Position numbers and translations under genes: made by a program
Assembly (NCBI RefSeq): GCF_030523955.1
Contig: NZ_JAUNHL010000006.1
Location: forward strand, 1,833 to 65,832
Direction: 5' to 3'
Origin: Neisseria sp.
GTDB taxonomy: Bacteria; Pseudomonadota; Gammaproteobacteria; Burkholderiales; Neisseriaceae
Length of the DNA: 64,000 bases
Part shown: positions 675 to 50,415 of the stretch, in pieces
How positions within the stretch are numbered: the first letter of the stretch is position 1
Layout: every line of letters starts with the position of its first letter
Notes under the pieces: generated by a model
Told to the model about the DNA's origin: nothing
The model's database searches: none
What the model saw: only the letters and a program-made list of their open reading frames with translations

Positions 675-707
675 GATATTGAAATAATGGGTAAATAGCG
701 GATTAAC

Positions 708-745
708 AGGCCGTCTGAATACCTTCGACAGGGTCTTCAGACGGC
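708..745. repeat. Canonical-dialect DUS inverted pair (aggccgtctgaa ... ttcagacggcct) forming a hairpin between hmuT and hmuU; a Correia TIR fragment (atagcggattaac) is adjacent
   Basis: Perfect inverted 12-mers containing GCCGTCTGAA, separated by a 16-nt loop. Confidence 0.7.
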
Positions 746-924
746 CTGGAACCTTTGCCAAATTCCTTGCAACATCTTCAAACCCCTACGTCATGCTCAG
801 GCTTGACCCGGGCATCTTTTGGTTTCAAAAGAAATATACAGATACTCGGGTTGGGCACGAGTATGACGGGATAAAAACATTTTCAGGGGGGAGGCGCCTT
901 TTTATAAAGCTCCCGGCCTGATGG

Positions 925-1713: not shown

Positions 1714-1724
1714 GGCTATGCTTT

Positions 1725-2140
1725 CCTTTGCTTTTTTCAGACAGGCATGTCCGGTGCAAAGGCCTGTCTGAAAACTTGTTACGTATCGGTTGTTTTGGCG
1801 GCGCGGGGAGACAAATCTGAGATTTGTTGCCCTCTCCCTAGCCCTCCCCCGCGGGGGAGGGAATAAGGTTGCTGGAATAGCAGCCGTATTTGCTAATTTC
1901 GGCAATCCGTTCTTTTTTCAGACAGGCATGTTCGGTGCAAAGGCCTGTCTGAAAGCTTGTTACGTATCGGTTGTTTTGGCGGCGCAGGAAAATAGACCTG
2001 CGGTTTGTTGCTCGCTTCCTAGTCCCCACAGGGTAGGGAATGGATTGTTGGAAACCGCCATGCATGATTGATTATTCAGCAACCTGTTCCCTCCCCCGTG
2101 GGGGAGGGCTAGGGAGAGGGCAGTAAGCCGCAGGCTTACC
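1725..2140. repeat. NIME-like repeat block: two diverged tandem ~190-bp units, each opening with a DUS hairpin, bracketed by 20-bp palindromes (ccctcccccgcgggggagggaat / ttccctcccccgtgggggaggg)
   Basis: 1725-1800 and 1913-1988 are near-identical (ttttttcagacaggcatgtYcggtgcaaaggcctgtctgaaaRcttgttacgtatcggttgttttggcggcgc). dRS3-like GGGAAT/ATTCCC ends sit at 1846-1871 and 2083-2108. Confidence 0.7.
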
Positions 2141-2176
2141 TTTCACCAAGCACAAAAGCCAAACCGATTGTGCCGT

Positions 2177-3217
2177 TCAGACGGCCTGCAACAAGCGGTC
2201 GGTGATTTCCCGCCAAGCGGCCAGTTCGGGTTCGCCTTCCTGCCGTCTGCCGAAAATCTGAATCACCGTTTTGCGGCGGCTGTCGAAGCCTTCTACGCAG
2301 GTAACGAAGCCGTCGCGTATCGGGCGGCGCACTACCCAGGTTTCGGCGATTTCGTCGTCTTTCAGGTGCAGGCTGAAGCCTTCTTCTTGGCCGTCGAGAA
2401 TGTTCAGATAGCCGCGGGCGCGCACGAGGTTGTGCACTTTGCCGGTTTGAATCTGCACGATGCCTCGGTTGCCGGCGAAAATCATGATTTCCAAGCCTTG
2501 CTCTTTCGCCTGCTCCAGCACCTGCTGCCACGCTTCCTGCGTGAGCAGACGGGTGGCGCCGGCGGGGGCGTGGCGGTAGGCGGTTTGGCGGTCGAGATTG
2601 AAAGTTTCGAGCAGGCCGCCGAAATGGTGCACGTCTTTCAGTTCGTTCCAACGCTCTTGAAACGCGGCTTCTTTTTCGGGCGTTAATGCGGCGGCGGCTT
2701 CCACGGGCGGCAGCCCGCCGCTTTGGAACGCGGGCTTGCCGCTGCGGCCGAAAGCGGCCAGCAGCGCCTGCCATTCGGCTTCTTTACCCTCTTCTTTTAA
2801 AAACACTTTCTGCACCGCCACGCCGAATTCGTCGTAAAACTGCACCGAGCGCGAAACCTTGCCGCCGTCGCGGGTGGTAACGGCCAGCGCATGATGCCAG
2901 CGCGCGGGGAAGATGCGCAGGTCGATGCCGCCGATATTGAGGGCGATGCCGGAAGTGGGCGCCATGCTCACGTTTTCATAAATGCCTTGTTTTTCGTGTA
3001 CGCACACACTGTTGCGCACCACGCACTGCACCCGCCCCAAGGTGTGCAGTTTCAATACGATGTCGCGGATGTTTTCTTTGCCGCCGAGGTAAACGCTTTC
3101 GGGCGCGTCGGCCATCAATGCGCCTTCGCTCACGCCCAGTTCGGCCGCGCCTTCGCGGGGAAAATAAACGCCTTGTTTGCCGGCTTTGTTGGCTTGGTAT
3201 TGTTGCCAGAGGTTCAT
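2177..3217 (-). CDS. hmuS: Hemin transport/degrading protein, ChuS/HemS/HmuS family
   Basis: 346 aa, against ChuS at 342 aa, with a two-repeat architecture; it lies between the heme receptor and hmuT. Confidence 0.75.
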   Translation of the reverse strand: MNLWQQYQANKAGKQGVYFPREGAAELGVSEGALMADAPESVYLGGKENIRDIVLKLHTLGRVQCVVRNSVCVHEKQGIYENVSMAPTSGIALNIGGIDLRIFPARWHHALAVTTRDGGKVSRSVQFYDEFGVAVQKVFLKEEGKEAEWQALLAAFGRSGKPAFQSGGLPPVEAAAALTPEKEAAFQERWNELKDVHHFGGLLETFNLDRQTAYRHAPAGATRLLTQEAWQQVLEQAKEQGLEIMIFAGNRGIVQIQTGKVHNLVRARGYLNILDGQEEGFSLHLKDDEIAETWVVRRPIRDGFVTCVEGFDSRRKTVIQIFGRRQEGEPELAAWREITDRLLQAV

Positions 3218-3236
3218 CAGTTGTTTCCTTTCATGT

Positions 3237-3279
3237 TTTCAGACGGCCTGTCCCATACCGCAAAGGCCGTCTGAAAAAA
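3237..3279. repeat. Canonical DUS inverted pair (ttttcagacggcct ... aggccgtctgaaaa) hairpin between the heme receptor and hmuS
   Basis: Inverted GCCGTCTGAA copies with a 13-nt loop; likely a terminator or attenuator. Confidence 0.7.
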
Positions 3280-3289
3280 CGGTTTGCCG

Positions 3290-5479
3290 TTAAAACTTCA
3301 CCTGTACCGTGGCCGCCACGTTGCGGCCGCTCATGCTGTACAAATCCATCACGCCGGTATCGGCCATGCCGGCCACATCAACGTGCTGCCAGTATTTTTT
3401 GTTGCCGAGGTTGTAGAGGTTCAGCCCCAATTCGACGTTTTTCACCGGTTTGTACCACGCGCCGATGTCCCACACGCCGTAGCCCGGCGTTTTGAAGAAA
3501 CTTTCGTCGCTCACGCGTTTCTGCTTGGCCGCCCAGCGCAGCTTGGCGCCTGCACCCCATTTTTCCTGCACATAATCCAAGCCGAGCACGCCGTTGAGCG
3601 GATAGGCGGTGTCGAGCGGCTTGCCTTCGCCGTCTTCGCCGCGCATCCAGGCGATGCTGCCGTTGAGATGCCAGGCATCATTCAAACGGTGGGAAGCGGC
3701 CGCTTCGATACCGTAGGTTTTCACTTTGTCGAGATTACCGTATTGATACACCAGCACACCGTTTTCGGTGCCGATGAGTTGGCGGTTGATGAAGTCGCGG
3801 TAGCGGTTGTAGAACGCGGTTACTTGCGCCTTGCTGTTTTCGCCTTTGTATTTCAAACCCAATTCAAAGCTGTTGGAACGCTCCGATTTCAGATTATTGT
3901 TGGGCACGATTTGGTAACCGTATTGGGTGTTGGAAAACGACATGGTGGCCGAATCGAACGGCGGCGTGCGGAAGCCCTGCGAATAGGTGGCGAAACCGGT
4001 GAATGCGTCGCCCATCGGCCAGCTTAGGCGCAGGCTGGGGGTGATTGCGCTGTCGCTGAAGTTTTGCGGCAGGCTTTCGGGGTTGGCGTTCAGATAGGCT
4101 TGGTCGATTTGCGGCTTCAGCTTTTCGTATTCGTAGCGCAGCGCGGGCGTGAGCACCACGCCGTTGGCAAAGGCGATGCTGTCTTGCGCATACACGCTGA
4201 AGGTGCGCCGTTTGCTGTCGGGGAAGGTTTTATTGGGATAGAGGCTGCCGGCATAGCTTTTGCTGGTGCTGCCGTCCGAATTAACCGTGAGGCTGTCGCG
4301 GCTGCGCTCGGTGTCGACGTGTTTGAATTCCGCCCCCGCCACCACCGTGTGTTTCAGACGGCCTGTGTCAAACTCGGCCACCGCACGGCTGCTGATACCG
4401 TTGGCGGTTTGGTCGAAGCCGTAGTCGGAATAACGGACGCCGCTGCCGACGGTGCGGCCGTTAATCGCGGTTTCGCTCGTGTTCACCGCATCGTCCTGTG
4501 CTTTGAGCTGCTGGCGGTAAAACATGATCTCGGCTTCTTTCAGACGGCCTCCGCCCATATAACGGTAGCCCAAGCCGAAGCGTTGGCGGCGGGCGGAATC
4601 ATACGCTTCGGCCAGGCTCTGCGTGGTGATAACCGTGGTCGGGCCGCGCACCACGCTGCTGCTGCCCAGCGTGTTGAGCAAATCGGTTTCGTTTTTGCGG
4701 TAAAACTGCTCGAGCACGGCTTCGAGGCGGTGGTTTTCGTTGCCGATATTGCCTTTGGCCAAAATATTGTAGCCGTTGTTGTCTTGCGGATTGTTTTTGG
4801 TGCGGCTGCTGTCGCGCGTATCGACGCTGCCTTTGTTTTTGATTTCATGCCCTTGGCGGCGGGTGAGCATCAGCAGACCCTCGGCGTTTTCGGTGTAGCC
4901 CGCCGCCGTGGCGGTTAGGCCGTGGCTGTTGTCGCGGCTGCGGTAGCCGTATTTCAGGCCGAAGTGATAAGGCTTGTCGGCATCGACGAAATCGCGCGGC
5001 GAATAAGTGGCCAGATTCACCACCCCGCCCAGCGCATCGCTGCCGTAGAGCGCGGAATACGGCCCTTTCACGATGTCTGCCTGCTTGAGCGTATCGGGTT
5101 CGACCAGATCGCGGCCCGAAATCGCACCGTTGCTGCCGCCGCCCGCATACGCCTCCGGCAGGCGCACGCCGTCCACCATCATCAGGATGCGGTTACCGTC
5201 GATGCCGCGGATATTTACGCCCGCGTTACCGCGGCGGGTGTTGTCGGAGGGCACCCACACGCCCGGCTCGTATAAAAACACATCATCCAGATTCGCAGCC
5301 GCAGCCTGATTCAGGGTTTGCCGCGACACCACCGCCACATTCGGCGCGGCTCGGTCGAGCTTCTGCGCGTTGCGGTCGGCGGTTACAGTAACGGTTTCCA
5401 ATTCGGCGGTTTGGGCAGCGGCATAAGGCAGGGCGCTGAACAAGATGGCGACGGCGTAGACGGTCGGTTTGAGTTTCAT
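3290..5479 (-). CDS. TonB-dependent heme/hemoglobin outer-membrane receptor
   Basis: 729 aa with a signal peptide MKLKPTVYAVAILFSALPYAAA, a TonB box ETVTVTA and a C-terminal ...QVKF. FRAP-like (GFRTPPF) and NPNL-like (VPNNNL) boxes are present, and hemS is adjacent. Confidence 0.8.
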   Translation of the reverse strand: MKLKPTVYAVAILFSALPYAAAQTAELETVTVTADRNAQKLDRAAPNVAVVSRQTLNQAAAANLDDVFLYEPGVWVPSDNTRRGNAGVNIRGIDGNRILMMVDGVRLPEAYAGGGSNGAISGRDLVEPDTLKQADIVKGPYSALYGSDALGGVVNLATYSPRDFVDADKPYHFGLKYGYRSRDNSHGLTATAAGYTENAEGLLMLTRRQGHEIKNKGSVDTRDSSRTKNNPQDNNGYNILAKGNIGNENHRLEAVLEQFYRKNETDLLNTLGSSSVVRGPTTVITTQSLAEAYDSARRQRFGLGYRYMGGGRLKEAEIMFYRQQLKAQDDAVNTSETAINGRTVGSGVRYSDYGFDQTANGISSRAVAEFDTGRLKHTVVAGAEFKHVDTERSRDSLTVNSDGSTSKSYAGSLYPNKTFPDSKRRTFSVYAQDSIAFANGVVLTPALRYEYEKLKPQIDQAYLNANPESLPQNFSDSAITPSLRLSWPMGDAFTGFATYSQGFRTPPFDSATMSFSNTQYGYQIVPNNNLKSERSNSFELGLKYKGENSKAQVTAFYNRYRDFINRQLIGTENGVLVYQYGNLDKVKTYGIEAAASHRLNDAWHLNGSIAWMRGEDGEGKPLDTAYPLNGVLGLDYVQEKWGAGAKLRWAAKQKRVSDESFFKTPGYGVWDIGAWYKPVKNVELGLNLYNLGNKKYWQHVDVAGMADTGVMDLYSMSGRNVAATVQVKF

Positions 5480-5557: not shown

Positions 5558-5576
5558 AATAATAACAATAATGATT
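5558..5576 (-). promoter_or_regulatory. Putative Fur box upstream of the heme receptor
   Basis: aataataacaataatgatt matches GATAATGATAATCATTATC at 13/19 positions, about 80 bp upstream of the start. An inverted repeat tgattcctatttgtaaacaggaatca overlaps it. Confidence 0.35.
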
Positions 5577-7723: not shown

Positions 7724-8620
7724 ATGACACAATCTATGCAAACTTTGGCCGACTGCATCGGCAATACGCCTTTGGTGCAACTGCAACGCGTGGCGGCGCA
7801 CACAAATTCGACGGTGTGGGCCAAGCTGGAAGGCAATAATCCGGCCGGTTCGGTGAAAGACAGGCCGGCTTTCCATATGATTATCGAGGCAGAGCGGCGC
7901 GGCGAGATTCGGCCGGGCGATACGTTGATCGAGGCCACCAGCGGCAATACCGGCATCGCGCTGGCGATGGCGGCGGCCATGCTGGGTTACCGCATGATTT
8001 TGCTGATGCCGAAAAATTCCACCCAAGAGCGCAAGGATGCGATGGCGGCATACGGCGCGGCTTTGCTGGAAACGGAAAGTATAGAGGCGGCGCGAGATCA
8101 GGCGCTGGAAATGCAGCGGCAGGGCTTGGGCAAAGTACTCGACCAGTTTAATAATCCGGATAATAAAATGGCGCATTATCTGAGCACCGGGCCGGAAATT
8201 TGGCAACAGAGCGGGGGCAAGATCAGCCATTTCGTCAGCTCGATGGGCACCACCGGCACCATCAGCGGCGTGGCGAAATATTTGAAGGAACAGAATCCCG
8301 CTATTCAGGTTATCGGTTTGCAACCGGATGAGGCTTCTTCGATTCCCGGCATCCGCCGCTGGCCGCAGGCTTATCTGCCGGGCATTTTCGAGGCGCAGTG
8401 GGTGGACAGGATTTTGGATGTCAACCAGCAGGATGCCGAACGTTTTATGCGTAAGCTGGCGCGGGAAGAAGGGGTGTTTGCCGGTGTTTCTTCCGGTGCG
8501 GCGGCGATGGCGGCGGTGCGGATTGCCGAAGAAAATCCCGGCGCGCAGGTGGTGTGTATTGTTTGCGACCGGGGCGACCGCTATTTGTCTACCGGTTTGT
8601 TTGGTGCGCAGGATGATTAA
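7724..8620 (+). CDS. cysM: Cysteine synthase (CysM-like, PLP-dependent)
   Basis: 298 aa from the ATG at 7724. It carries GNTPLV, LEGNNPAGSVKDR and SSGNTG motifs and is collinear with E. coli CysM. Confidence 0.7.
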   Translation: MTQSMQTLADCIGNTPLVQLQRVAAHTNSTVWAKLEGNNPAGSVKDRPAFHMIIEAERRGEIRPGDTLIEATSGNTGIALAMAAAMLGYRMILLMPKNSTQERKDAMAAYGAALLETESIEAARDQALEMQRQGLGKVLDQFNNPDNKMAHYLSTGPEIWQQSGGKISHFVSSMGTTGTISGVAKYLKEQNPAIQVIGLQPDEASSIPGIRRWPQAYLPGIFEAQWVDRILDVNQQDAERFMRKLAREEGVFAGVSSGAAAMAAVRIAEENPGAQVVCIVCDRGDRYLSTGLFGAQDD

Positions 8621-8860
8621 ACTGTGTGTTGATTGATCACACTGTTATCCCGAGCTTGATGCAGGTATCTTGGAACCGGCGGAATGAAAGATGCTTGGGT
8701 TAAGTCTGAATAGGAATGCCTGTCTGAAAACGGTTTTTAGACAGGCATTTTATGACTTGGCATAGGGAATGACTTTCGGATTGGATTTGCACGTGTGTTT
8801 GCCGTTTCCATGAAAACGCGTGGCTGCTTGGTTTGCTTGAATATAAAGGAAATAATAAGA

Positions 8861-8893
8861 ATGCCTGTCTGAAACGTTTTTTCAGACAGGCAT
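8861..8893. repeat. DUS inverted pair; a second, degenerate pair lies at 8716-8748
   Basis: atgcctgtctgaaacgttttttcagacaggcat. Confidence 0.65.
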
Positions 8894-8903
8894 TTGGCCT
8901 TAT

Positions 8904-10676
8904 TCACGGGCAGGCGGTTTCGCCGACGCGGATGTTTTGGTTGTGGAAGGCTTGCAGGGTGTTGCGGTGGCCGATGCTGATCAGTATGGTATCGGGCAGG
9001 CGCTGCCGGATGAGGGTGTAGAGCATGGCTTCGGTGGGTTCGTCCAGCGCCGAAGTGGCTTCGTCCAGCAGCACGACTTTGGGGGCGCTGAGCAGAATGC
9101 GGACGAAGGCGATGCGTTGCAGTTCGCCGGGTGAGAGCCTGTGTTGCCAGTCGTCGGTTTGATCGAGTTTTTCAATCAGGTGCTCCAAACGGCAGTCGGC
9201 GAGGGTGGTTGCCAGCGCGGGATGATGCGGATCGATGTCGGGGTAGCAAATGGCTTGGCGCAAGCTGCCTTGCGGGGTGTAGGGGCGTTGCGGTACGAAC
9301 AGCAAATTTTGCGGCGCGGGCCGGCGGATGCTGCCGCTGCTGCCGAACGGCCACAAACCGGCCAAGGCGCGCATCAGCGAGGTTTTGCCGCAGCCGCTGG
9401 GGCCTTGGATCAACAGGGCATCGCCGCTTTGCGCTTGCAGGCGGATGTTGTCGAGCAAGATGTCGCCGTTGTTGCGGTAAAGGGTAACGCCGTTTAATGA
9501 GATGCTGCCGTCGTCGGCTTCTTCGATATCGGGCCGGTGCAGCGGTGTCGGGTTGTCCATGCTGGCCAGAAAGCCGCTCAAGCGTTCGAGGCGGGCGCGG
9601 TAGACGGTGAATTCTTCATAGAAATTGCGGAAGAACGATAGGGCGCGTTGCAGGCGGTTGAAGGCTTGTACGGTTTGGTGCATATCGCCGATTTTAATCT
9701 GGCCGGCGAAAAAACGGGGAGCTTGCAGCATCAGCGGCAAAAGTTGTACACCTTGGGTGAGCAGGTCGTTGAAGCCGTTAAGGCCGACGCTCTGGCGGGT
9801 GATTTTCCAACGGTTGCGGATGATGGCGCGAAAGCGTTCGCCCAATTGCTGTTTTTCCTGCCATTCGCCGTTGTAAAAGGCGATGCTTTCGGCATGGTCG
9901 CGGATGCGGATGAGGGCGTAGCGGTAGTTGCCGTTGAGTTTTTCGTTGTCGTAGTTGTAGCGGATGAGGGGTTTGCCTATCCACATGGCGGCAACGGTGG
10001 AGAGCAGTACGAAGATGAATACGAAAAATACGATGCCGCGCGGGATTTCGACGCCGAATAAGGAAAGAATGCCGGATAGCCCCCACAATACGATGGTGAA
10101 TTCGATGGCGGAGAGGACGGAATTGAGCATGCCCCGTATGAATTCGATGGTGGTGGTGATGAAGTCTTGTGCGTCTTGCTGGATACGCTGGTCGATGTTG
10201 TCGGGCGTGTGGCGGCGCATTTGCAGGCGGTAGTAGTTTTTATCGGCCAGCCAGCGCTCGGTGAGCACGCTGTTGAGTTTTTCCGACCATTTGATGGCGA
10301 GCGATTGGTCGAGAAAGTCGTTGATGATGCCGTTGAGGGTGCGCAGGATGACCACGCCGGCGTTAATCAGGGCGAAAAACCAGAAAGCTTGGGCTTTTTG
10401 GTCTTGCAGGGCGCTGTATAAGCCGTTGTAGAAAAAGGTGTTTAATACGTTAAGACGGATTTCGGTGAGCAGCAGAACGATCATCAGGGCTGCCAGCAGC
10501 AGTACTTTGCGGCTGCTTTTTTTGTCGAGGCAGGGTTTTAAAACGTGCCAGAATTGTTTGCCGAAGCGGGTTTTGCCGCTCAGGGCGATGATGAGGGCAA
10601 GCGCTACTAATACGCCGCCGAAAGTCTGCAACAGCCACATGGGGGTAGCGTGCAGTTCGATTTGCCATTTTTCCAT
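8904..10676 (-). CDS. Fused permease/ATPase ABC transporter, YddA/SbmA/BacA-like (COG4178)
   Basis: 590 aa with N-terminal 6-TM domain and a C-terminal NBD (GPSGCGKTS, LSPGELQRIAFVRILL, LLDEATSALD). It lies 120 bp downstream of a TonB-dependent receptor on the same strand. Confidence 0.7.
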   Translation of the reverse strand: MEKWQIELHATPMWLLQTFGGVLVALALIIALSGKTRFGKQFWHVLKPCLDKKSSRKVLLLAALMIVLLLTEIRLNVLNTFFYNGLYSALQDQKAQAFWFFALINAGVVILRTLNGIINDFLDQSLAIKWSEKLNSVLTERWLADKNYYRLQMRRHTPDNIDQRIQQDAQDFITTTIEFIRGMLNSVLSAIEFTIVLWGLSGILSLFGVEIPRGIVFFVFIFVLLSTVAAMWIGKPLIRYNYDNEKLNGNYRYALIRIRDHAESIAFYNGEWQEKQQLGERFRAIIRNRWKITRQSVGLNGFNDLLTQGVQLLPLMLQAPRFFAGQIKIGDMHQTVQAFNRLQRALSFFRNFYEEFTVYRARLERLSGFLASMDNPTPLHRPDIEEADDGSISLNGVTLYRNNGDILLDNIRLQAQSGDALLIQGPSGCGKTSLMRALAGLWPFGSSGSIRRPAPQNLLFVPQRPYTPQGSLRQAICYPDIDPHHPALATTLADCRLEHLIEKLDQTDDWQHRLSPGELQRIAFVRILLSAPKVVLLDEATSALDEPTEAMLYTLIRQRLPDTILISIGHRNTLQAFHNQNIRVGETACP

Positions 10677-10697
10677 AGTTTTGCTTAATTAAGGGTA

Positions 10698-10728
10698 ATG
10701 CCTGTCTGAAAAGTTTTCAGACAGGCAT
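10698..10728. repeat. DUS inverted pair hairpin between the TBDR and the ABC gene
   Basis: atgcctgtctgaaaa g ttttcagacaggcat. Confidence 0.7.
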
Positions 10729-10796
10729 ATGCCGTTGTATCGGGCAGGATGACGTTTGGCGCCGGCCTTGCCCGGTCGGGCCGGCGCCGCCGGGAG

Positions 10797-12986
10797 TTAG
10801 AAGCTCAGTTTGGCGCCCAGGGTAATGCTGCGCGGATCGCCGATGGAGAGGAAAGGCATGGTGCTGTTGGAGCCGGTGCTGGACACGTAATACAGCTTGT
10901 CGCTCAGGTTTTTGCCGGTGAGGCGGATGTTGAGCGGGTATTTGCCGACTTTGGTGTCGTAGGAAACGAAGGCGTTGTAAATCGTCGCCGAGGGCAGGGT
11001 GAACCAGCCGCCCGCATCGTTGCCGACGCCCCAGCTGCCGATATAACGTGCACCGGCGCCGGCGCGCCAGTTACCGCCGGCGGCTTGGCCGAAGTCGTAA
11101 GTGAAGGTTAAGCCGGCTTCGTGTTCGGGCACGCTGTCGAACGGTTGGCCGACAATCAGCGGATTGCTGTCGTTTTGCAGGATTTTGGTGTGGGTGTAGG
11201 TGTAGTTGGCGGAGATGCCGAGTTTGTCGGTCAGCTTGCCGTTTACATCAATCTCTGCGCCGTAAGAGCGGTTTTTGCCGATGATGCGGGTTTCGTCGTC
11301 CACCGTACCGGCAACGTTGCGTTTGGTGATGTGGAAGAGGGCGAAGTTGGCGCTCAGGTTGTCGCCGTTGTATTTGGTGCCCAATTCGAACGAACGGGCG
11401 AGTTCGGGCGGTATTTCCGCGCCGTTAAAGTCGGTGCCGCGCGAGGCGTTGGGGTTCAGCGATTCCGAGTAATTGCCGTATACCGACCAATCCGGGCGGA
11501 TCAGATACACCGCGCCCAATTGCGGCAGCAGGCGGAAGCCTTCGCTGTAGTTGCGGAAATAACTATCGCCGCGTCCTTTGCCGGAAATGCTGCGGTAATA
11601 CTGGCCGCGCAGGCCGCCGGAGATAATCCATTTGTCGCCTACGTACATATTGTCCTGCACCAAGAGGGCGGCGGTTTTCAGGCGCTCGTATTGGTCGCTT
11701 TCGGAATTGCGGATGCTGGTACCCGAACTTTCGATCAGGCTGGGGCCGACGTATTGCGGGTCATCGATGCTGAAGCCGGCAATATTGGCGCTGCGGTACA
11801 TGTCGCCGAGGGTGAGTTTGTTGTCTTGTGCCTGCAAGGCGATACGCAGTTTGTGGGTGATGTTTTCGCCTTGGTCGACGATACCGTTGGCGGAAAGATT
11901 GAGGCTGTGGCCGGTATGGTCGGACGGCCGGGTGCCGTCGATGCGGCGGGTAACGGTACGGGTGGCGGCATTGTAGGCGGTAATCCGGGCCTGCCAGTCG
12001 CTGTAATGGTTGGTGCTGTAGCCGTAGGTGGCTTTCAGGGTCCAGTCGTTATTGATTTTGTGTTCGCCGCTCAATTGCAGGTTGTGGGCGTAACCATCGG
12101 AAATATTGAAGTTTTCGTCCAAACGGCGTTCGGCGGGAATGTCGATCGGTTTACCGTAGCTGGCATAGCCTTGGTTGTTGCTGTTCAAATCGAGGTAAGT
12201 GCCGCGGTCGAACGGTATCGAGTAGTTTTGATACTCGTAAGCCGCCAAGAGTTTGGTGTTTTCGTTTTGCCAAGAGAGCGAGGGTGCGATGATGCTTTGG
12301 CGGTATTTTGCGTGTTCGCCGTCGTGATCGCGCCAGTGTTTTTTGCCGCTGTAATCGGCGATAAAGCGGTAAGCCAAGCCGCTGTCGGCAATCGGGCCGG
12401 TAAGATCGATGCCGATTTGGCGTTGGTTCTGGGTGCCGATAGAGGCGTTGATGCTGTTTTCGGCTTTATAAAGCGGTTTTTTGGAAACGATATTGATCAC
12501 GCCGCCGGGGTCTTGCACGCCGTAGAGTACGGAAGCGGGACCTTTCAATACTTCGACGCGTTCGGCGGTGGCGGTGTAGTTACGCGCTTGCGTGGATTCG
12601 ACGCCGTTGCGCATGATGGAATGATCGCGGTTGCCGCCGTAGCCGCGTTTGACGATGGCATCTAGGGTGCCGGCCAGATTATTGCCTTGGTGCAGGCCGC
12701 TGATACCGGTTACCGCATCTTCCAGGGTTTGCGGCTGTTTGTCTTCCAGCTGCTGTTGGGTGACCACGTCGATGCTGTAGGGGGTATCCAGAATGGAGGT
12801 GTTGACACCGGTGATGTCGCTGCGTTCGGCTTTATAACCCGTTTCCATGGTCAGGCGTTTGGCGCGTACTTGCAGGGTTTCCAGTTGGGTGGGGGAGGCG
12901 CTGTTGCTTTCATCGGCAAATGCCGGAGCGGCTGCGCTGAGGCTTAATACGGCCAGCGCACAAGGGGTGAGGCGTGTGATTAGCAT
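10797..12986 (-). CDS. TonB-dependent outer-membrane receptor (siderophore, FhuA/FhuE/FusA type)
   Basis: 729 aa from the ATG at 12986. It has a signal peptide ...AAPAFA, a TonB box QLETLQVRA, a plug plus 22-strand barrel pattern, and ends KLSF. Confidence 0.8.
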   Translation of the reverse strand: MLITRLTPCALAVLSLSAAAPAFADESNSASPTQLETLQVRAKRLTMETGYKAERSDITGVNTSILDTPYSIDVVTQQQLEDKQPQTLEDAVTGISGLHQGNNLAGTLDAIVKRGYGGNRDHSIMRNGVESTQARNYTATAERVEVLKGPASVLYGVQDPGGVINIVSKKPLYKAENSINASIGTQNQRQIGIDLTGPIADSGLAYRFIADYSGKKHWRDHDGEHAKYRQSIIAPSLSWQNENTKLLAAYEYQNYSIPFDRGTYLDLNSNNQGYASYGKPIDIPAERRLDENFNISDGYAHNLQLSGEHKINNDWTLKATYGYSTNHYSDWQARITAYNAATRTVTRRIDGTRPSDHTGHSLNLSANGIVDQGENITHKLRIALQAQDNKLTLGDMYRSANIAGFSIDDPQYVGPSLIESSGTSIRNSESDQYERLKTAALLVQDNMYVGDKWIISGGLRGQYYRSISGKGRGDSYFRNYSEGFRLLPQLGAVYLIRPDWSVYGNYSESLNPNASRGTDFNGAEIPPELARSFELGTKYNGDNLSANFALFHITKRNVAGTVDDETRIIGKNRSYGAEIDVNGKLTDKLGISANYTYTHTKILQNDSNPLIVGQPFDSVPEHEAGLTFTYDFGQAAGGNWRAGAGARYIGSWGVGNDAGGWFTLPSATIYNAFVSYDTKVGKYPLNIRLTGKNLSDKLYYVSSTGSNSTMPFLSIGDPRSITLGAKLSF

Positions 12987-13407
12987 ATCTTCTTTAAATG
13001 GTATTCGAAAGGGAAGTGGAAAAAACGGCGGAAAAAGGAGTTCCGTCAACATAAGGGATTTATATAATGGATTTATTCTATTTTAAATAAAAATAATAAT
13101 AATTACCATTAATTAATAAGCTCTTTTCTTGTTAGTAGTTTGTTAAAAAAGAAAATATTTTTTTGTAATATTGGCAGAAAGTGGCAAGTACCCGGGATAA
13201 CGGAAAAAAGGCAGAAAGAAGCGAGAAAATCGGCGCTTTGCCTTGAAAACGGCGGCAAACAGGCGCAAAATACAAGCATCTTGTTCAGAGCGTGTCGTAC
13301 AACACCGGCACGCTTTTCGGTTTTTGCAAAAATGGTGGAAATGGTGCGGCGCTTGCCGCGGCGCATCATTTTGCCGCTGTACGATAGATTCGCTAAGGAT
13401 AATTGTT

Positions 13408-14577
13408 ATGTCGCAAGCGCTACACCCCGAAACACTGGCTATTCGCGGTGCTAAATTACAAACGGAATATAACGAACACCATCAGGCCTTGTTTTTAACC
13501 AGCAGCTTTATGTTCGACACCGCCGCCGAAGGTGCGGCGCTGTTTTCCGGCGCGCAGCCGGGCTTTACTTACAGCCGTACCGCCAATCCGACGGTAGAGA
13601 CGTTTAATCGGCGTATTTCGCTGTTGGAAGGCGCCGAGCAATCGGTATCGATGGCCACCGGCATGGCGGCGATTCAGGCGGCGATGCTGACTTTTCTGAG
13701 CGCGGGCGACCATTTGATTTGCAGCCGCAGCCTGTTCGGTACCACCATGGGGTTTATCATGAACCATGTCACGCGTTTCGGTATCGAAGTGACTTTGGTG
13801 TCGCAAACCGATTTGGCCGAATGGCAGGCGGCGTTGCGGCCAAATACCAAAATGCTGTTTTTGGAAACGCCGTCCAATCCTTTGAACGAAATCGCCGATT
13901 TGGCGGCGCTCGCCGAAATCGCCCATGCTGCCGGTGCGCTTTTGGTGGTGGACAACAGTTTTTGTTCGCCTGCCTTGCAGCGTCCGTTGCTGTTGGGCGC
14001 CGATTTGTCGGTGCAGTCGGCGACCAAAGCCATCGACGGCCACGGCCGGGTGCAGGGCGGGGTAGTGAGCGGCAGCCGCGAGCTGATGGGTAAAATCCAG
14101 CTTTATATGAACAGCGCCGGTTTGTCGATGTCGCCGTTTCATGCTTGGGAATTGCTGAGCGGCTTGGAGACCTTGTTCGTTCGCATGGAGAAACAATGCG
14201 CCAATGCGGATAAAATCGCGGCATGGTTGCGTGAACAGCCGCAGGTATTGAATGTTTACCACGCCGGTTTTGCCGATCACCCGCAGGCGGAATTGGTGAG
14301 AAAGCAGCAGCGCGCCGGCGGTATTGTGGTGGCTTTTGAAGTGGAAGGCGGCCAAGAGGCGGCATGGAAGTTGATGGACAGCGTACAGATTTTCTCGCGC
14401 ACCGCCAATCTGGGCGATGTGCGTTCCACCATCACCCATCCTTGGACCACCACCCACGGTAAAATGGCGGCGGAGGCCAAATATGAGTCAGGCATTCGCG
14501 AAGGTTTGTTGCGGCTGGCAGTAGGCATGGAATATGCCGATGATTTGATTGCCGATTTGGCGCAGGCGATGGCGTAA
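13408..14577 (+). CDS. metZ: O-succinyl/O-acetylhomoserine sulfhydrylase (Cys/Met-metabolism PLP enzyme)
   Basis: 389 aa starting MSQALHPETLAIRGA; the N-terminus is typical of the MetZ/CGS family and the RBS is aagga. The ORF-track extension is unsupported. Confidence 0.65.
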   Translation: MSQALHPETLAIRGAKLQTEYNEHHQALFLTSSFMFDTAAEGAALFSGAQPGFTYSRTANPTVETFNRRISLLEGAEQSVSMATGMAAIQAAMLTFLSAGDHLICSRSLFGTTMGFIMNHVTRFGIEVTLVSQTDLAEWQAALRPNTKMLFLETPSNPLNEIADLAALAEIAHAAGALLVVDNSFCSPALQRPLLLGADLSVQSATKAIDGHGRVQGGVVSGSRELMGKIQLYMNSAGLSMSPFHAWELLSGLETLFVRMEKQCANADKIAAWLREQPQVLNVYHAGFADHPQAELVRKQQRAGGIVVAFEVEGGQEAAWKLMDSVQIFSRTANLGDVRSTITHPWTTTHGKMAAEAKYESGIREGLLRLAVGMEYADDLIADLAQAMA

Positions 14578-14869: not shown

Positions 14870-14892
14870 TTTTATACTGTTTCGGATTGCTT

Positions 14893-15951
14893 ATGCTGCG
14901 CTACATCTTGCAACGACTGCTGCTGCTGATTCCCACACTGTTCGGCATTCTGGCGATTACTTTTGCCGTGATCCAATTCGTGCCCGGCGGGCCGGTCGAG
15001 CAGATGGTTACCCAACTGACGCAAAGTACGGTTATGGGCGAAGCGGGCGGCAGCGCCACTTCTTCATCGATGTTGCAGCGCGGCGGCAGCCGGCTGAGTG
15101 CAGAGGATATGGAGAAAATCAAAGCCTTATACGGTTTTGACAAACCGGCGCTCGAACGTTTCACTGATATGATAGCGCGCTTTTTACGTTTCGATTTGGG
15201 CGAGAGCTTTTTCCACCACCAAACGGTGTTCGAATTGGTGAAGGAAAAACTACCGGTATCGATGAGCCTGGGTTTGTGGACTTTCTTTCTGACTTATTTA
15301 ATTTGTATTCCGTTGGGCATTGCCAAAGCAGTGCGCGACGGCAGCCGTTTCGATGCGGCCACCAGTCTCGTGATTCTGGTAGGCTATACGATTCCGCCTT
15401 TTGTATTGGGTTTGGTGTTGCTGGTGTTGTTCGGCGGCGGCAGCTTCTGGGCGTGGTTTCCTCAAGGAGGCTTGGTGAGCGACGATTGGGCAAGCTTCAG
15501 TTGGCCGCACAAAATCGCCGATTATCTCTGGCACATGGCGTTGCCGATTACCGCTTCGGTGGTCGGCAATCTGGCGGTGATGACGGTGCTCACCAAAAAC
15601 GTATTTCTCGAAGAAATCCGCCGCCAATATGTGTATACCGCGCGTGCCAAAGGCCTGTCTGAAAAACACATCCTGACCCGCCATGTATTGCGCAACGCCA
15701 TGATTCCGCTGATTACCGGATTTCCCGCCGCTTTTATCGGCGCGTTTTTCACCGGCAGCCTGTTGATCGAAACCCTGTTTTCGCTCGACGGCTTGGGCCT
15801 GCTCTCTTACGAAGCGGTGATGAAACGCGATTATCCGGTGGTGATGGGCACGCTGTATGTGTTCACGCTGATGAGTTTGATAGCGAAATTATTGTCGGAC
15901 ATCTCTTATTCTTGGGTGGATCCGCGCATTCATTTCGGCGGGCAGAAATAA
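14893..15951 (+). CDS. yejB: Microcin C/oligopeptide ABC transporter permease YejB
   Basis: Collinear with E. coli YejB (LLLIPTLFGI...FVPGGPVEQ...GLVLLVLFGGGS...VDPRIHF). Confidence 0.75.
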   Translation: MLRYILQRLLLLIPTLFGILAITFAVIQFVPGGPVEQMVTQLTQSTVMGEAGGSATSSSMLQRGGSRLSAEDMEKIKALYGFDKPALERFTDMIARFLRFDLGESFFHHQTVFELVKEKLPVSMSLGLWTFFLTYLICIPLGIAKAVRDGSRFDAATSLVILVGYTIPPFVLGLVLLVLFGGGSFWAWFPQGGLVSDDWASFSWPHKIADYLWHMALPITASVVGNLAVMTVLTKNVFLEEIRRQYVYTARAKGLSEKHILTRHVLRNAMIPLITGFPAAFIGAFFTGSLLIETLFSLDGLGLLSYEAVMKRDYPVVMGTLYVFTLMSLIAKLLSDISYSWVDPRIHFGGQK

Positions 15952-15966
15952 TTGCGCAAGGGGTAG

Positions 15967-16995
15967 ATGTTGATGCGAAAAATCTTTTCTTCACCTGTCT
16001 GGCAGGCATTCAAACGGCACAAGCGCGGCTGGTTTTCACTGCGTCTGCTGGCCGTGTTGTTTGTGTTGGCGCTGCTCGCGCCGTTGTGGAGCAACGATAA
16101 ACCTTTGTGGATACACTATCAGGGCGAATATTATTTCCCGTTGGCCAATACCTATCTCGACCGCGATTTCGGCGGCGATTTCGAAACGCCGGCCGATTAT
16201 TTCGACCCGCTCATCCGCAGAAACATCACCGAAAACGGTAACAGCGCCGTTTATCCGCTCAACCCCTACGCTGCCAACACCTTAAACGACTTCGATACCG
16301 CGCCCGACCCGGCGCCGCCTTCGGCCAACCACTGGCTGGGTACCGACGACCGCGGCCGCGATATTCTGGCGCGCTTGGTATACGGTTTCCGCGATTCGTT
16401 GCTGTTTGCATTGGCGTTAACGGTGATTACCACGATTATCGGCGTGCTGGCCGGTGCGATACAGGGTTATTTCGGCGGCAAAGTCGATTTGGTGATGCAG
16501 CGTCTTATGGAAATCTGGGGCGGTATGCCCGAATTGTATCTGCTGATTATTTTGCTGTCGTTTTTTAATCCCAGCCTGCTGATATTGCTGTTGCTGCTTT
16601 CCTTATTCGGCTGGATGGGTTTGTCGGATTACGTGCGCGCCGAGTTTTTGAAAAACCGCCAGGCCGATTATGTATTGGCGGCCAAAAGCATGGGCGTGGG
16701 CAACCGCGCGATTATGTGGCGGCACATTCTGCCCAACAGTCTCACGCCGGTATTGGCCTTTTTACCGTTTCGCATTTCCGGCGCGGTATTGGCCCTAACC
16801 AGCCTTGATTTTTTGGGTTTGGGCGTGCCTACTTCGCAGGCGAGCCTGGGCGAATTGCTTTCGCAAGGCAAAGAGAACCTCGATGCTTGGTGGATAGGCT
16901 TGCCGGCTTTCGGTACGCTGACCATGATGCTGTTGCTTCTGGTGATGGTGGGCGAGGGTTTGCGTTATGCATTTGATGTACGCGGCAGAAAATAA
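15967..16995 (+). CDS. yejE: Microcin C/oligopeptide ABC transporter permease YejE
   Basis: 342 aa OppC/DppC-type permease, immediately after yejB. Confidence 0.7.
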   Translation: MLMRKIFSSPVWQAFKRHKRGWFSLRLLAVLFVLALLAPLWSNDKPLWIHYQGEYYFPLANTYLDRDFGGDFETPADYFDPLIRRNITENGNSAVYPLNPYAANTLNDFDTAPDPAPPSANHWLGTDDRGRDILARLVYGFRDSLLFALALTVITTIIGVLAGAIQGYFGGKVDLVMQRLMEIWGGMPELYLLIILLSFFNPSLLILLLLLSLFGWMGLSDYVRAEFLKNRQADYVLAAKSMGVGNRAIMWRHILPNSLTPVLAFLPFRISGAVLALTSLDFLGLGVPTSQASLGELLSQGKENLDAWWIGLPAFGTLTMMLLLLVMVGEGLRYAFDVRGRK

Positions 16996-17005
16996 GGTGG
17001 ATGGC

Positions 17006-18547
17006 ATGAACATTCTGGAAATCGAACATCTGCATGCCGCTTTCCCCGGCAATACGGTATTGCACGACATTCATTTGCAGGTGAAAACCGGCCGCAAACT
17101 GGCGGTGGTGGGGGAGAGCGGCAGCGGCAAAACCGTGCTGGCGCAAGGCATTATGCGGCTCAATCCCGATGTGTCGCTGCAAGGCGAAATCCGTTTTCAG
17201 GGCGAAAATCTGCTGGCTTTGCCGGAAAAATCGCTGCGCAAACTGCGCGGCCGCGATATCGGCATGGTGTTTCAAGAACCGATGACGGCGCTCAACCCTG
17301 TGATGCAGGTTGGCCGGCAGATTGCCGAAGTGCTGATTTTGCATCTGGGTTTGGACAAGCGCGCCGCTTGGCAAAAAGCCGTTGATTTGTTGCGAGAAAC
17401 CGGTATACGGGATGCCGAAGAAAAAGTATCTGCCTATCCTTTCCAGCTTTCCGGCGGCCAGCGCCAGCGGGTGATGATTGCGATGGCGGTAGCAGCCGAG
17501 CCGAAGCTGCTGATTGCCGACGAGCCGACTACTGCGCTCGATGTGGCGGTGCAGGCACAAATATTGGATTTGCTCGACCGTTTGCAGCGCGAGCGCAATA
17601 TGACCATTTTATACATCACCCACGATTTGAATTTGGTGCGCCGCTTTGCAGATGATGTGGCGGTGATGCGTTACGGCAGAATCGTCGAGCAGGGCGCGGT
17701 GGCCGATATTTTCGATCGCCCGCAACACGAATATACCCGCCTGCTGCTGGATGCGGTGCCCAAGCGCGAAATCGAATGCCTGTCTGAAAACGCGCCGACC
17801 GTATTGCAGGCCGAAGGGCTGGGAGTAACGGTGAGCCGCAAAACCGGTTGGTTTAAAAAAGAGCAAAAAACCATTTTGCAGCCTTTGAGCTTTAATTTGA
17901 AAAGCGGCGAAACTCTGGGGGTAATCGGCGAGAGCGGCAGCGGAAAAACCACGTTGGCTAAGGCTTTGCTGCATTTGATGGAGGCTTGCGGCCAAGTGGT
18001 GCTCGACGGCAGGCCGTGGTCGCCGGCGAGCCGGCGCGATATTCAGATGGTGTTTCAAGACCCGTTCGGCGCATTCAATCCGCGCATGACGGTGCTCGAT
18101 ATCGTTTCCGAAGCCTTGGGTGTATACGAAAAAAACCTCGGCGAGGCTGAAATTGAGGCGCGGGTTCGCGAAGTGTTGCAGGCAGTGGGGCTGGAAGGCG
18201 AGATACTGGCGCGCTATCCGCACGAATTTTCCGGCGGCCAGCGCCAGCGCCTGGCGATTGCCCGTGCGATTATCGTCAAGCCCAAAGTATTGGTATTGGA
18301 CGAGCCGACCAGCGCACTTGATGTGCAGTGGCAGCGCGAAATTCTGAAGCTGCTGGCCCGTTTGCAAAAAACTTACGGCCTAAGCCTGATTGTTATCAGC
18401 CACGATTTGGCCGTTATCGGCGCACTGTCGCATCGTGTGATGGTGCTCAAAGACGGCGCAGTGGTGGAAGAGGGCGATTGCGAAAAGGTTTTTGCCCATC
18501 CCTATGCAGACTATACCCAAAAGCTATTGATGCATCACAGGGCTTGA
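17006..18547 (+). CDS. yejF: ABC transporter ATP-binding protein with duplicated ATPase domains, YejF
   Basis: Two Walker A motifs (GESGSGKT twice) and two LSGGQRQR signature motifs. The start is trimmed to MNILEIEHL with RBS aaggtgga. Confidence 0.75.
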   Translation: MNILEIEHLHAAFPGNTVLHDIHLQVKTGRKLAVVGESGSGKTVLAQGIMRLNPDVSLQGEIRFQGENLLALPEKSLRKLRGRDIGMVFQEPMTALNPVMQVGRQIAEVLILHLGLDKRAAWQKAVDLLRETGIRDAEEKVSAYPFQLSGGQRQRVMIAMAVAAEPKLLIADEPTTALDVAVQAQILDLLDRLQRERNMTILYITHDLNLVRRFADDVAVMRYGRIVEQGAVADIFDRPQHEYTRLLLDAVPKREIECLSENAPTVLQAEGLGVTVSRKTGWFKKEQKTILQPLSFNLKSGETLGVIGESGSGKTTLAKALLHLMEACGQVVLDGRPWSPASRRDIQMVFQDPFGAFNPRMTVLDIVSEALGVYEKNLGEAEIEARVREVLQAVGLEGEILARYPHEFSGGQRQRLAIARAIIVKPKVLVLDEPTSALDVQWQREILKLLARLQKTYGLSLIVISHDLAVIGALSHRVMVLKDGAVVEEGDCEKVFAHPYADYTQKLLMHHRA

Positions 18548-50366: not shown

Positions 50367-50415
50367 ACCTCGGACGACACCGTTTGGCTGCTATGCGCAG
50401 GCAGACGGTGTTTTC

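Follow-up and report, generated by a model that had tools for sequence, protein, structure and literature searches.

A siderophore-type receptor gene conserved beside a BclA-type ABC transporter gene in Neisseria: a candidate uptake pair independent of a binding protein

Results

A 64-kb stretch of DNA from Neisseria sp. (hereafter the window) carries a gene for a TonB-dependent siderophore receptor followed by a gene for a fused ABC transporter, and the orthologue of this ABC gene directly abuts a siderophore-type receptor gene in 46 of 54 species-level loci of Neisseriaceae, Pasteurellaceae, and Moraxella. This conserved pairing, of which we found no earlier description in the searchable literature, is the main new result of the analysis. 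The adjacency strongly supports the functional coupling of the two genes that an earlier note on this DNA had proposed. On balance, the sequences favor the view that the two genes encode a conserved two-part system for taking up a ferric xenosiderophore or another hydrophilic iron chelate of this kind.

Layout of the locus

The earlier note had described a 729-aa receptor and, 120 bp downstream on the same strand, a 590-aa fused TMD–NBD protein, and this layout was confirmed. The receptor ORF occupies positions 10797 to 13052 of the minus strand, with an ATG at 12986 giving the 729-aa product (10797–12986), and the ABC ORF occupies positions 8904 to 10676 of the same strand. The receptor gene lies upstream, and the gap is exactly 120 bp (10677–10796). 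As the note had also said, neither a binding protein nor a FecCD permease nor an M16 protease is encoded next to the pair; a dedicated TonB gene was likewise not found near it. Siderophore biosynthesis genes were absent beside the pair in the window and in every context examined, and a search of the window region and of six related loci gave no cobalamin or other riboswitch. A canonical heme system, 3.4 to 10 kb downstream of the pair, comprises a TonB-dependent receptor (3290–5479), HemS, a Peripla_BP_2 protein (925–1905), and a FecCD permease, and is a separate operon. The gene for this permease extends past the start of the window. The canonical binding-protein-dependent transporter of this system, 8 kb away, could, in principle, serve the receptor of the pair.

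Sequence features of the receptor

The receptor carries a signal peptide (MLITRLTPCALAVLSLSAAAPAFA) and a TonB-box-like segment, LETLQVRA, and ends in phenylalanine. Pfam identified the Plug and TonB_dep_Rec_b-barrel domains (1.9e-52) but no STN signaling domain at the N-terminus. The protein scored 298 bits on the siderophore-receptor model TIGR01783 (cutoff, 223.5). Its best PDB matches were FoxA (6i97 and 6z8a, E about 1e-53), with an alignment that begins at residue 98 of the FoxA chain, followed by FetA and FhuA (E about 1e-32 for FhuA), whereas no similarity to YddB was detected (best E, 0.21). These matches place it among FoxA/FhuA-like siderophore receptors, apart from YddB, and not with the YddB/FusA type considered in the earlier note. 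Its substrate is not assignable because every score on equivalog-level NCBIfam models was far below the cutoff.

Sequence and predicted structure of the ABC protein

The 590-aa protein matched ABC_membrane_2 (1.5e-55), SbmA_BacA (6.8e-20), and ABC_tran in Pfam, and its Walker A, signature, Walker B with the catalytic glutamate, and H-loop motifs are all canonical. Its best solved relative is Rv1819c (6tqe; 408 bits, E 4.6e-121, residues 22–582). An AF2 model (mean pLDDT, 75.5) gave 6tqe_A as the top Foldseek match (E 2.4e-33, 36% identity), and IrtAB structures were among the fold matches. Identity to E. coli YddA was 31% (E 5e-70). The analogy with yddB–yddA and fusA–fusD drawn in the earlier note holds for the ABC protein but not for the receptor. 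With 189 bits for ABC_membrane_2 versus 80 bits for the MsbA model, in addition to the YddA and Rv1819c matches, the protein groups with the YddA/BclA/Rv1819c clade and not with MsbA or CydDC exporters, the outcome that the note had named as refuting its reading; within the clade, it is closer to Mycobacterium tuberculosis Rv1819c than to YddA.

An orthologue from Basilea psittacipulmonis (IX83_RS01710, "BclA"), 67% identical over 400 aa, has been classed as "Mycobacterium_BacA" (SSN cluster 1, BclA). In a Sinorhizobium meliloti bacA mutant, it rescued the gentamicin phenotype in part and left the NCR247 peptide phenotype uncomplemented (PMC12003926), which we read as inward transport without BclA-like peptide specificity. 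Rv1819c itself has been described as importing cobalamin, bleomycin, and other hydrophilic compounds without the help of a binding protein (PMC3603451, PMC13316013).

Conservation of the receptor–ABC pairing

Against the 46 paired loci stands a background of 2 other TonB-dependent receptors among roughly 970 flanking genes. At least five unrelated receptor clusters are found next to the ABC gene; both orientations occur, as do many genomic contexts. T2 receptors, which are BauA/FemA-like, are divergent from the ABC gene in most Neisseria and share its strand in K. pumchi, Rodentibacter, and A. pleuropneumoniae. T61, the type in the window, is on the same strand as the ABC gene in N. wadsworthii, N. 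sp. 83E34, N. canis, A. filiformis, N. shayeganii, A. actinomycetemcomitans, G. parasuis, Pasteurellaceae LFhippo2, and Pelistega, where exbB, exbD, tonB, the receptor gene, and the ABC gene follow one another on one strand. T353 is the partner in Moraxella boevrei, and T194 and T404 are further partner clusters. The gaps of 5 bp in M. boevrei and 9 bp in Rodentibacter indicate operons. All five partner clusters match TIGR01783; T61, T353, T404, and the Rodentibacter T2 receptor score above 223.5 bits, whereas N. sicca T2 and T194, at about 189 bits, fall under the cutoff.

The pairing extends across Neisseriaceae, Pasteurellaceae, Moraxella, and Alcaligenaceae, and the pair stays together in at least six contexts with different flanks. 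The tree of the ABC proteins tracks taxonomy but the receptor type does not, which fits a generalist ABC partner. The ABC gene is also intact in N. gonorrhoeae, N. lactamica, N. polysaccharea, K. denitrificans, and A. crassa, where no receptor gene adjoins it, and Pseudomonas homologues (35–37% identity) lie beside a two-component system with no TonB-dependent receptor within 10 kb; the ABC protein is thus not strictly dependent on a neighboring receptor. In N. meningitidis 11-7, the receptor partner is missing and the ABC orthologue is truncated; split ABC genes have also been recorded (PMC13316013). Distant T61 homologues (39–41%) in H. pittmaniae and P. syringae have no ABC partner.

Intergenic hairpins and expression signals

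The gap contains an inverted pair of DNA uptake sequences (DUS; TGCCTGTCTGAA, TG-wadDUS dialect) at 10699–10710 on the plus strand and 10716–10727 on the minus strand. On the minus strand, the pair forms a hairpin (10698–10728) with a 14-bp stem and a 3-nt loop, 21 nt upstream of the ABC start codon. A GC-rich 10-bp hairpin (10758–10788, minus strand) directly follows the receptor stop codon, and folding of the gap RNA gave two stable hairpins between the genes (−53.4 kcal/mol, z-score −4.5). The DUS hairpin has no U-tract after it and was not called as a terminator by terminator prediction.

The earlier note, which had correctly placed a DUS hairpin in the gap, suggested that it could set the expression ratio of the two genes. 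However, the 64 kb contain about 20 inverted DUS pairs, of which this is one, and equivalent hairpins precede the ABC gene in N. dentiae, N. musculi, K. pumchi, N. elongata, and A. crassa; that of N. dentiae lies about 22 nt before the ABC start although the receptor gene is divergent. The hairpin is, therefore, a generic feature of this genome and not an element specific to the receptor–ABC junction, and what is left of the suggestion is a possible damping of ABC expression. Another inverted DUS pair with a 15-bp stem and a T-rich tail (CTTATTATTT) at 8860–8894 on the minus strand is the likely intrinsic terminator of the ABC transcript.

About 100 nt upstream of the receptor start, overlapping Fur-box-like sites (13086–13113) form the densest such cluster in the window and may constitute an iron-responsive operator/promoter, although they match GATAATGATAATCATTATC at only 13 to 14 of 19 positions in AT-rich DNA. 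Sites upstream of orthologous or analogous receptor genes likewise reach 13 to 14 of 19, whereas receptor–ABC gaps reach only 9 to 11. In the gap of the window, neither a Fur-box-like site nor a sigma-70 promoter was predicted.

Proposed function and alternatives

The most likely function of the pair, judged from homology and gene context, is xenosiderophore import independent of a binding protein. Iron limitation would lift Fur repression at the receptor promoter, and the receptor, powered by TonB–ExbBD encoded elsewhere, would carry the chelate into the periplasm. The Rv1819c/BclA-type homodimer would then take up the chelate directly, with no periplasmic binding protein involved, into its large hydrophilic cavity and spend ATP to deliver it to the cytoplasm. 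The ABC gene may be expressed by read-through of the non-terminating gap hairpins, from a weak promoter of its own, or both. As one ABC orthologue accompanies several unrelated siderophore receptors, the protein probably serves as an inner-membrane gate of broad specificity and not as a permease for one substrate. Siderophore import by type IV "exporter-fold" proteins without binding proteins has precedents in YbtPQ (PMC10967856) and IrtAB (PMC10246721, PMC11779899).

A clearly less likely reading is that the coupled pair imports another cargo, such as a peptide or thiopeptide antibiotic, a sideromycin, an aminoglycoside-like compound, or a vitamin, in the manner of microcin J25 via FhuA and then SbmA. 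Rv1819c, BclA, and SbmA take up bleomycin, antimicrobial peptides, aminoglycosides, and cobalamin (PMC3603451, PMC12003926, PMC13316013), lasso peptides enter via siderophore receptors (PMC13316013), and the gentamicin result for the Basilea orthologue points the same way. The NCR247 result does not, and the TIGR01783 matches of the five partner clusters, albeit below the cutoff for N. sicca T2 and T194, together with the Fur-box-like sites and the lack of a riboswitch in the loci searched, favor an iron chelate. Moreover, no scanned receptor was best matched by models of B12, heme, or oligosaccharide receptors. The entry of antibiotics would more likely be a by-product than the selected function.

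It is improbable that the ABC protein is an exporter acting in efflux, lipid or acyl transport, or the secretion or recycling of a chelator that the receptor recaptures. Related ABCD proteins operate in both topological directions, and the related ExsE and ABCD1–3 carry fatty acyl substrates in the direction away from the NBD side. The type IV "exporter" fold, the best NCBIfam match (a peroxisomal acyl transporter model, far below its cutoff), and the report of E. coli YddA as a drug/multidrug efflux protein (PMC9728188) would also fit export. By contrast, the closest characterized relative, Rv1819c, imports, as does the Basilea orthologue on our reading of gentamicin; the Pelistega gene order resembles an uptake operon; and the contexts examined lack siderophore biosynthesis genes. 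Inward transport is the more probable direction.

A similarly low probability attaches to the absence of any functional link, with the ABC protein a housekeeping envelope or stress transporter that receptor genes adjoin by chance or at a DUS-rich recombination hot spot. Such a reading would account for the near universality of the ABC gene in these families, also where no receptor adjoins, for the DUS elements on its flanks, and for the hairpins separating the window genes. It agrees poorly with the retention of the pair across five or more unrelated receptor clusters, two orientations, and six or more flanking contexts or with the gaps of 5 to 9 bp in two lineages, and a fixed-site hot spot cannot account for a pair that moves as a unit.

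Finally, protease-associated import of the FusABCD or PqqL–YddB–YddA type, with iron taken from a host protein and the protease encoded elsewhere, is very unlikely despite the homology to YddA, the proposal that FusD/YddA-type proteins import iron released from ferredoxin (PMC6793856), and the host-associated life of the organism, because the receptor is of the small-molecule siderophore type and unrelated to YddB, no dedicated TonB lies nearby, and neither the 64-kb window nor 87 related loci contain a PqqL/M16 protease or YddB-like sequence.

Comparison with known systems

FoxA of Pseudomonas aeruginosa and FhuA of E. coli, the closest solved structures, share with the window receptor the plug and barrel and the match to TIGR01783; unlike FoxA, the window receptor has no N-terminal signaling domain. 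FhuA works with the binding-protein-dependent FhuBCD and FoxA with FoxB, whereas the neighbor of the window receptor is a BclA-type ABC protein. Toxins exploit the cooperation of FhuA and SbmA in E. coli, where, to our knowledge, fhuA and sbmA have not been described as adjacent; the pairing in the window is genomic. The microcin J25 route, invoked in the earlier note, resembles the present pair in that a siderophore-type receptor is followed by an inner-membrane transporter of the SbmA_BacA fold, a Pfam domain also found in the ABC protein. It is nevertheless the wrong mechanistic comparison because SbmA has no NBD and is proton driven (PMC13316013), whereas the window protein has a complete ATPase.

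In the PqqL–YddB–YddA system of E. coli and FusABCD of Pectobacterium, a TonB-dependent receptor gene also adjoins a gene for a YddA-type fused ABC protein and no binding protein is involved. The E. coli order is yddA–yddB–pqqL, whereas in the window the receptor gene precedes the ABC gene, its product is unrelated to YddB, and the protease and dedicated TonB are missing; here the pair probably carries a small chelate and not a protein-derived cofactor. YbtPQ (with the FyuA/Psn receptor) and IrtAB share the proposed import of a ferric siderophore, once it has crossed the outer membrane or envelope, by a binding-protein-independent type IV ABC protein, but these are heterodimers with ABC_membrane (PF00664) TMDs, whereas the window protein is presumably a homodimer with an ABCD/Rv1819c-type TMD (PF06472) and lacks the siderophore-interacting reductase domain of IrtA.

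The nearest counterparts are Rv1819c ("BacA", 6TQE/6TQF) and the BclA family (Smith et al. 2025, PMC12003926), in which an ABC_membrane_2/SbmA_BacA-type TMD is likewise joined to a C-terminal NBD. Rv1819c is similar over its full length and also uses no binding protein, although the window protein has a shorter periplasmic TM1–TM2 loop, and the Basilea orthologue did not act as an NCR247 peptide transporter. M. tuberculosis has no TonB-dependent receptors and its Rv1819c stands by itself, with cobalamin, bleomycin, and peptides as known cargoes, whereas genes of the window type are systematically paired with siderophore-type receptors.

Characterization of the ABC protein

Both ORFs are present at the coordinates given in the earlier note. 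The ABC gene (8904-10676, minus strand) lies downstream of the TonB-dependent receptor (TBDR) gene and encodes a protein of 590 amino acids; P0001, which derives from a metagenome-assembled genome of Neisseria sp., is 100% identical to it. In a Pfam search it matched PF06472 (188.9 bits, residues 47-323), PF05992 (72.2 bits), and PF00005 (61.4 bits, residues 408-542), that is, an ABC_membrane_2/SbmA_BacA-type transmembrane domain (TMD) fused to a C-terminal ATPase domain (NBD) in one polypeptide. Among solved structures, Mycobacterium tuberculosis Rv1819c (6tqe_A) was by far the best match (E = 4.6e-121, residues 22-582), and the eukaryotic ABCD transporters came next; a Foldseek search with an AlphaFold2 model (mean pLDDT 75.5) also placed 6tqe_A at the top (E = 2.4e-33, 36% identity), followed by ABCD1/3/4. 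Escherichia coli YddA showed 31% identity over 508 amino acids (E = 5e-70). Sequence, domains, and fold agree on the membership of the YddA-type family proposed in the earlier note, and the group can now be given as the BclA/Rv1819c ("Mycobacterium BacA")/YddA clade. Clustering with the MsbA or CydDC exporters, named there as the contrary outcome, was not observed: Rv1819c was closest, classical exporters matched through the ATPase domain only (CydD through the NBD only), and the MsbA model scored 80 bits.

The SbmA/BacA (SLiPT) proton-driven transporters consist of the TMD only, with a TM0 domain and a complete glutamate ladder, whereas the window protein has a complete NBD; it scored 62 against a cutoff of 492 with the SbmA equivalog model and is not a member of that group. 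The motifs GPSGCGKTS (Walker A), VPQRPY (Q-loop), LSPGELQR (signature), VVLLDEATSALD (Walker B with Glu), and IGHR (H-loop) were all found, and these motifs, including the catalytic glutamate, were invariant in 26 orthologues. The NBD is predicted from these residues to be catalytically competent.

The YddA family was described in a 2026 structural paper as being "of unknown function," with Rv1819c as the closest structure (PMC13316013). In the catalogue of Smith et al. (2025), the BclA proteins of Neisseriales and Pasteurellales are listed as antimicrobial-peptide transporters; antimicrobial-peptide uptake is the only theme of that family survey, which left out gene context (PMC12003926). Basilea psittacipulmonis IX83_RS01710 (Dataset S2, PMC12003926) shares 67% identity with the window protein across the 400 residues listed there; in a Sinorhizobium meliloti bacA mutant, it rescued the gentamicin phenotype in part but failed to complement the NCR247 peptide phenotype (PMC12003926), which we take as evidence of inward transport that lacks the peptide specificity of BclA. 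The Eikenella exigua "BclA-like" protein of the same survey was considered as an orthologue and rejected; it shares 26% identity with the window protein and 31% with E. coli YddA, and its assay data were set aside because it is a different paralogue.

Characterization of the receptor

The receptor ORF spans 10797-13052 (minus strand), with ATG at 12986 as the likely start, giving a protein of 729 amino acids. The translation has a signal peptide (...APAFA/DES), a TonB-box-like sequence (LETLQVRA) near the mature N-terminus, and a terminal phenylalanine (...GAKLSF before the stop codon). Pfam detected the plug (PF07715) and barrel (PF00593) domains, and the N-terminal signaling domain is absent. 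The protein belongs to the siderophore-receptor subfamily TIGR01783 (298 bits against a curated cutoff of 223.5), and its closest solved structures were Pseudomonas aeruginosa FoxA (about 1e-53), then the enantio-pyochelin receptor and FhuA. The scores with substrate-specific equivalog models (FhuA, FoxA, FhuE, FecA, and similar) were all far under the cutoffs, for example, 178 against 803 for FhuA and 160 against 1300 for FoxA; a hydroxamate-type substrate is our guess.

A receptor of the YddB/FusA type, as in the systems to which the earlier note had likened the pairing, was rejected in favor of the siderophore type. The best BLASTP E value against YddB was 0.21, tblastn with YddB gave no matches in the window or 87 related loci, and FusA was absent among PDB matches of the receptor at E <= 1e-10.

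Conservation of the receptor-ABC pairing

When one genome was scanned for each species with the ABC protein as the single query, 79 loci with relatives were obtained, around which ORFs were called and clustered and a receptor profile was built. A TBDR gene directly adjoined the ABC orthologue in 46 of the 54 non-Pseudomonas loci (the window included), and only two other receptor genes were found in the roughly 10-kb flanks of those loci. Extra look-ups that took the receptor, or ABC orthologues of Pasteurellaceae, as the starting point gave seven more loci, all of which were paired: Neisseria canis, Alysiella filiformis, Neisseria shayeganii, Aggregatibacter actinomycetemcomitans, Pelistega sp. 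(cluster order exbB-exbD-tonB-receptor-ABC), and, with a split receptor gene in the strains examined, Glaesserella parasuis and Actinobacillus pleuropneumoniae. Paired loci come from Neisseriaceae, Pasteurellaceae, Moraxella, and one Alcaligenaceae member with its own exbBD-tonB. The flanking genes vary between loci, indicating that the pair moves as a unit; in the window, no GC anomaly indicative of horizontal transfer was detected across 2-20 kb.

The neighboring receptors formed at least five sequence clusters. Those of cluster T2, which are related to BauA (E = 2.8e-83) and FemA (1e-68), are divergent from the ABC gene in most Neisseria but share its strand in Kingella pumchi, Neisseria sp. 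HSC-16F19, and Rodentibacter, and those of the window's cluster (T61, FoxA/FhuA-like) are on the same strand. Three receptors were singletons, found in Moraxella boevrei (gap of 5 bp), in a metagenomic bin, and in one locus with the receptor downstream. In a neighbor-joining tree, the ABC proteins tracked taxonomy and the receptor type did not, which indicates that a vertically inherited ABC gene gained different receptor partners. A 288-amino-acid ABC_membrane_3 (PF13748) protein follows the pair in Neisseria wadsworthii, Neisseria sp. 83E34, and N. canis (loci L008, L048, and L081) and is not present in the window.

The pairing has exceptions. Intact ABC genes without a neighboring receptor or its remnants occur in the Neisseria gonorrhoeae/lactamica/polysaccharea group and in some Kingella and Alysiella, and no ABC gene accompanies the distant homologues of T61 in H. 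pittmaniae and P. syringae. The Pseudomonas homologues (35-37% identity) lie beside a two-component system, with no TBDR within 10 kb (L055-L080), and the association is therefore not family-wide. In these loci of the Pseudomonas fluorescens group (about 7900-11650), genes for a histidine kinase and a response regulator always precede the homologue on the same strand, a different conserved context for the same ABC family. In Neisseria meningitidis 11-7 (CCD84_RS04350), the ABC orthologue is truncated and the receptor neighbor is lacking (PMC12003926, Dataset S2), in agreement with the split gene that PMC13316013 mentions for meningococci. Frameshifted or split receptor genes lie beside an intact ABC gene in an uncultured Neisseria, A. 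pleuropneumoniae, and G. parasuis (L053, 610-2920; L085, 2771-4613; L086, 3321-4762). These truncated-ABC and split-receptor loci show signs of one partner decaying.

Intergenic region and regulation

The gap between receptor and ABC genes is 120 bp (10677-10796). A GC-rich hairpin directly follows the receptor stop codon, and an inverted pair of the DUS 12-mer TGCCTGTCTGAA (10698-10728) forms a 14-bp stem 21 nt 5' of the ABC start. The DUS hairpin in the gap has no U-tract; the one after the ABC gene scores as a terminator. The 12-mer occurs in 52 copies in the 64 kb, against 0 expected, and makes up about 20 inverted pairs, most of which lie at gene ends. One of these (50418-50453) is inside a dpp-like cluster (48726-54422), where it separates the binding-protein gene (48726-50366) from the first permease gene (50495-51508), a position that would suit an attenuator.

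Inverted DUS pairs were also found 2-60 nt 5' of the ABC start in several other Neisseriaceae (L054, 9945-9990; also L004, L010, L012, L038, L041, and L052), regardless of whether the receptor gene shares the strand, is divergent, or is missing. Because they precede the ABC gene even where the receptor is divergent or absent, the hairpin is better regarded as part of the ABC leader than as an element of the receptor-ABC junction, where the earlier note had suggested that it could set the expression ratio of the two genes. The inverted pair may form a hairpin conserved in the leader of the ABC mRNA, and in the window it may lower ABC expression.

No match to the strict Fur consensus (<= 3 mismatches) was found. 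Fur-box matches of 13-14/19 upstream of the receptor (13086-13113) form the densest such cluster in the window, and comparable matches lie upstream of receptor genes in related loci, with receptor-ABC gaps reaching 9-11; these matches are weak evidence because the DNA is AT-rich. A sigma-70 promoter scan predicted none in the gap or directly upstream of the receptor.

Transport genes near the pair

A scan of the neighbors confirmed that neither a periplasmic binding protein nor a FecCD permease is encoded with the pair; the neighboring genes encode PLP enzymes, an OEP protein, and Opp-like permeases. The window's only Peripla_BP_2 and FecCD genes belong to a separate, canonical heme-uptake operon (1-5479, minus strand) a few kb downstream, which comprises a TBDR (3290-5479), a HemS/ChuX-type protein (2177-3217), Peripla_BP_2 (925-1905), and a FecCD-type permease truncated by the window start; a Fur-box-like site (13/19) lies upstream of it at 5558-5576. 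The pair is accordingly not a canonical binding-protein-dependent (type II) importer of the FhuBCD/FepBDGC kind.

A YejBEF-like set (14887-18547, plus strand) encodes two Opp/Dpp-type permeases and a 526-amino-acid double ATPase with an oligo_HPY domain; no solute-binding protein is adjacent, and a Cys/Met-metabolism PLP enzyme lies directly upstream (13408-14577, plus strand). YejABEF is a known peptide-antibiotic importer, so the set gives the neighborhood of the BclA-type gene a second promiscuous uptake system. Farther along, a 627-amino-acid protein (19587-21470, minus strand) with a class-3 lipase domain, RTX calcium-binding repeats, and a serralysin-type C-terminal domain is likely a lipase secreted by the type I route; its gene adjoins one for a CopA-type heavy-metal P-type ATPase (21729-23924, minus strand).

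Proposed function and alternatives

We lean toward reading the pair as a conserved two-gene uptake module for ferric chelates, the best supported of the readings considered. The siderophore-type receptor would hand the ferric chelate to the ABC protein, which would act as a broad-specificity, binding-protein-independent importer of the Rv1819c/BclA type.

Cargo other than iron is one alternative. A cobalamin route, considered by analogy with Rv1819c, was rejected: an Rfam search (E <= 1) found no riboswitch or other family in the window at 8500-13500 or in six related loci, and the receptors are not BtuB-like. Export or recycling by the ABC protein is another alternative; E. coli YddA was reported as an efflux pump (PMC9728188), and transport by the window protein may therefore be outward rather than inward. 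The adjacency of the two genes could also be coincidental, but a functional link of some kind is likely.

A protease-associated import system (FusABCD; PqqL-YddB-YddA) was rejected: a YddA-type ABC gene is adjacent, but the receptor is not YddB-like, tblastn with PqqL, the M16 protease, found nothing in the window or 87 related loci, and Pfam found no M16 protease among the pair's neighbors. Together with the absence of TonB/ExbBD genes from the window, these results confine the likeness to yddB-yddA (pqqL) and fusA-fusD drawn in the earlier note to the ABC component.

Returning to ferric chelate import, a wider proposal is possible, although we hold it as tentative. In Gram-negative bacteria, the YddA-family proteins of the BclA/"Mycobacterium BacA" branch would have the physiological role of a promiscuous, binding-protein-free gate in the inner membrane for ferric siderophores, to which interchangeable TBDRs (BauA/FemA-like, FoxA/FhuA-like, and others) would deliver, with uptake of aminoglycosides, bleomycin, and host peptides being collateral. 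One ABC homodimer serving several receptors would account for receptor swaps beside a vertically inherited ABC gene, and such a gate would account for ABC decay in some meningococci that lost the partner.

Comparison with known systems

The conserved mobile pairing with siderophore receptors provides a concrete, genetically testable hypothesis for the YddA/BclA/Rv1819c family. If true, it would explain possible xenosiderophore use by binding-protein-poor commensal Neisseria and veterinary Pasteurellaceae, and it would represent a two-gene entry route open to siderophore-drug conjugates and aminoglycoside-like drugs in these bacteria. Siderophore import without binding proteins is established for the type IV ABC proteins YbtPQ and IrtAB (PMC10967856, PMC10246721, PMC11779899). 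A literature search that covered few subscription journals turned up no account of a pairing between a siderophore-type TBDR and an ABC protein of the BclA/Rv1819c type, and two papers on iron restriction in A. pleuropneumoniae (PMC1832192, PMC12507848) contained nothing attributable to the pair; the kind of system is known, and this lineage and its receptor partners appear to be undescribed so far. If the proposal holds, the ABC proteins would constitute a third, homodimeric ABCD-like lineage of binding-protein-independent siderophore importers beside YbtPQ and IrtAB.
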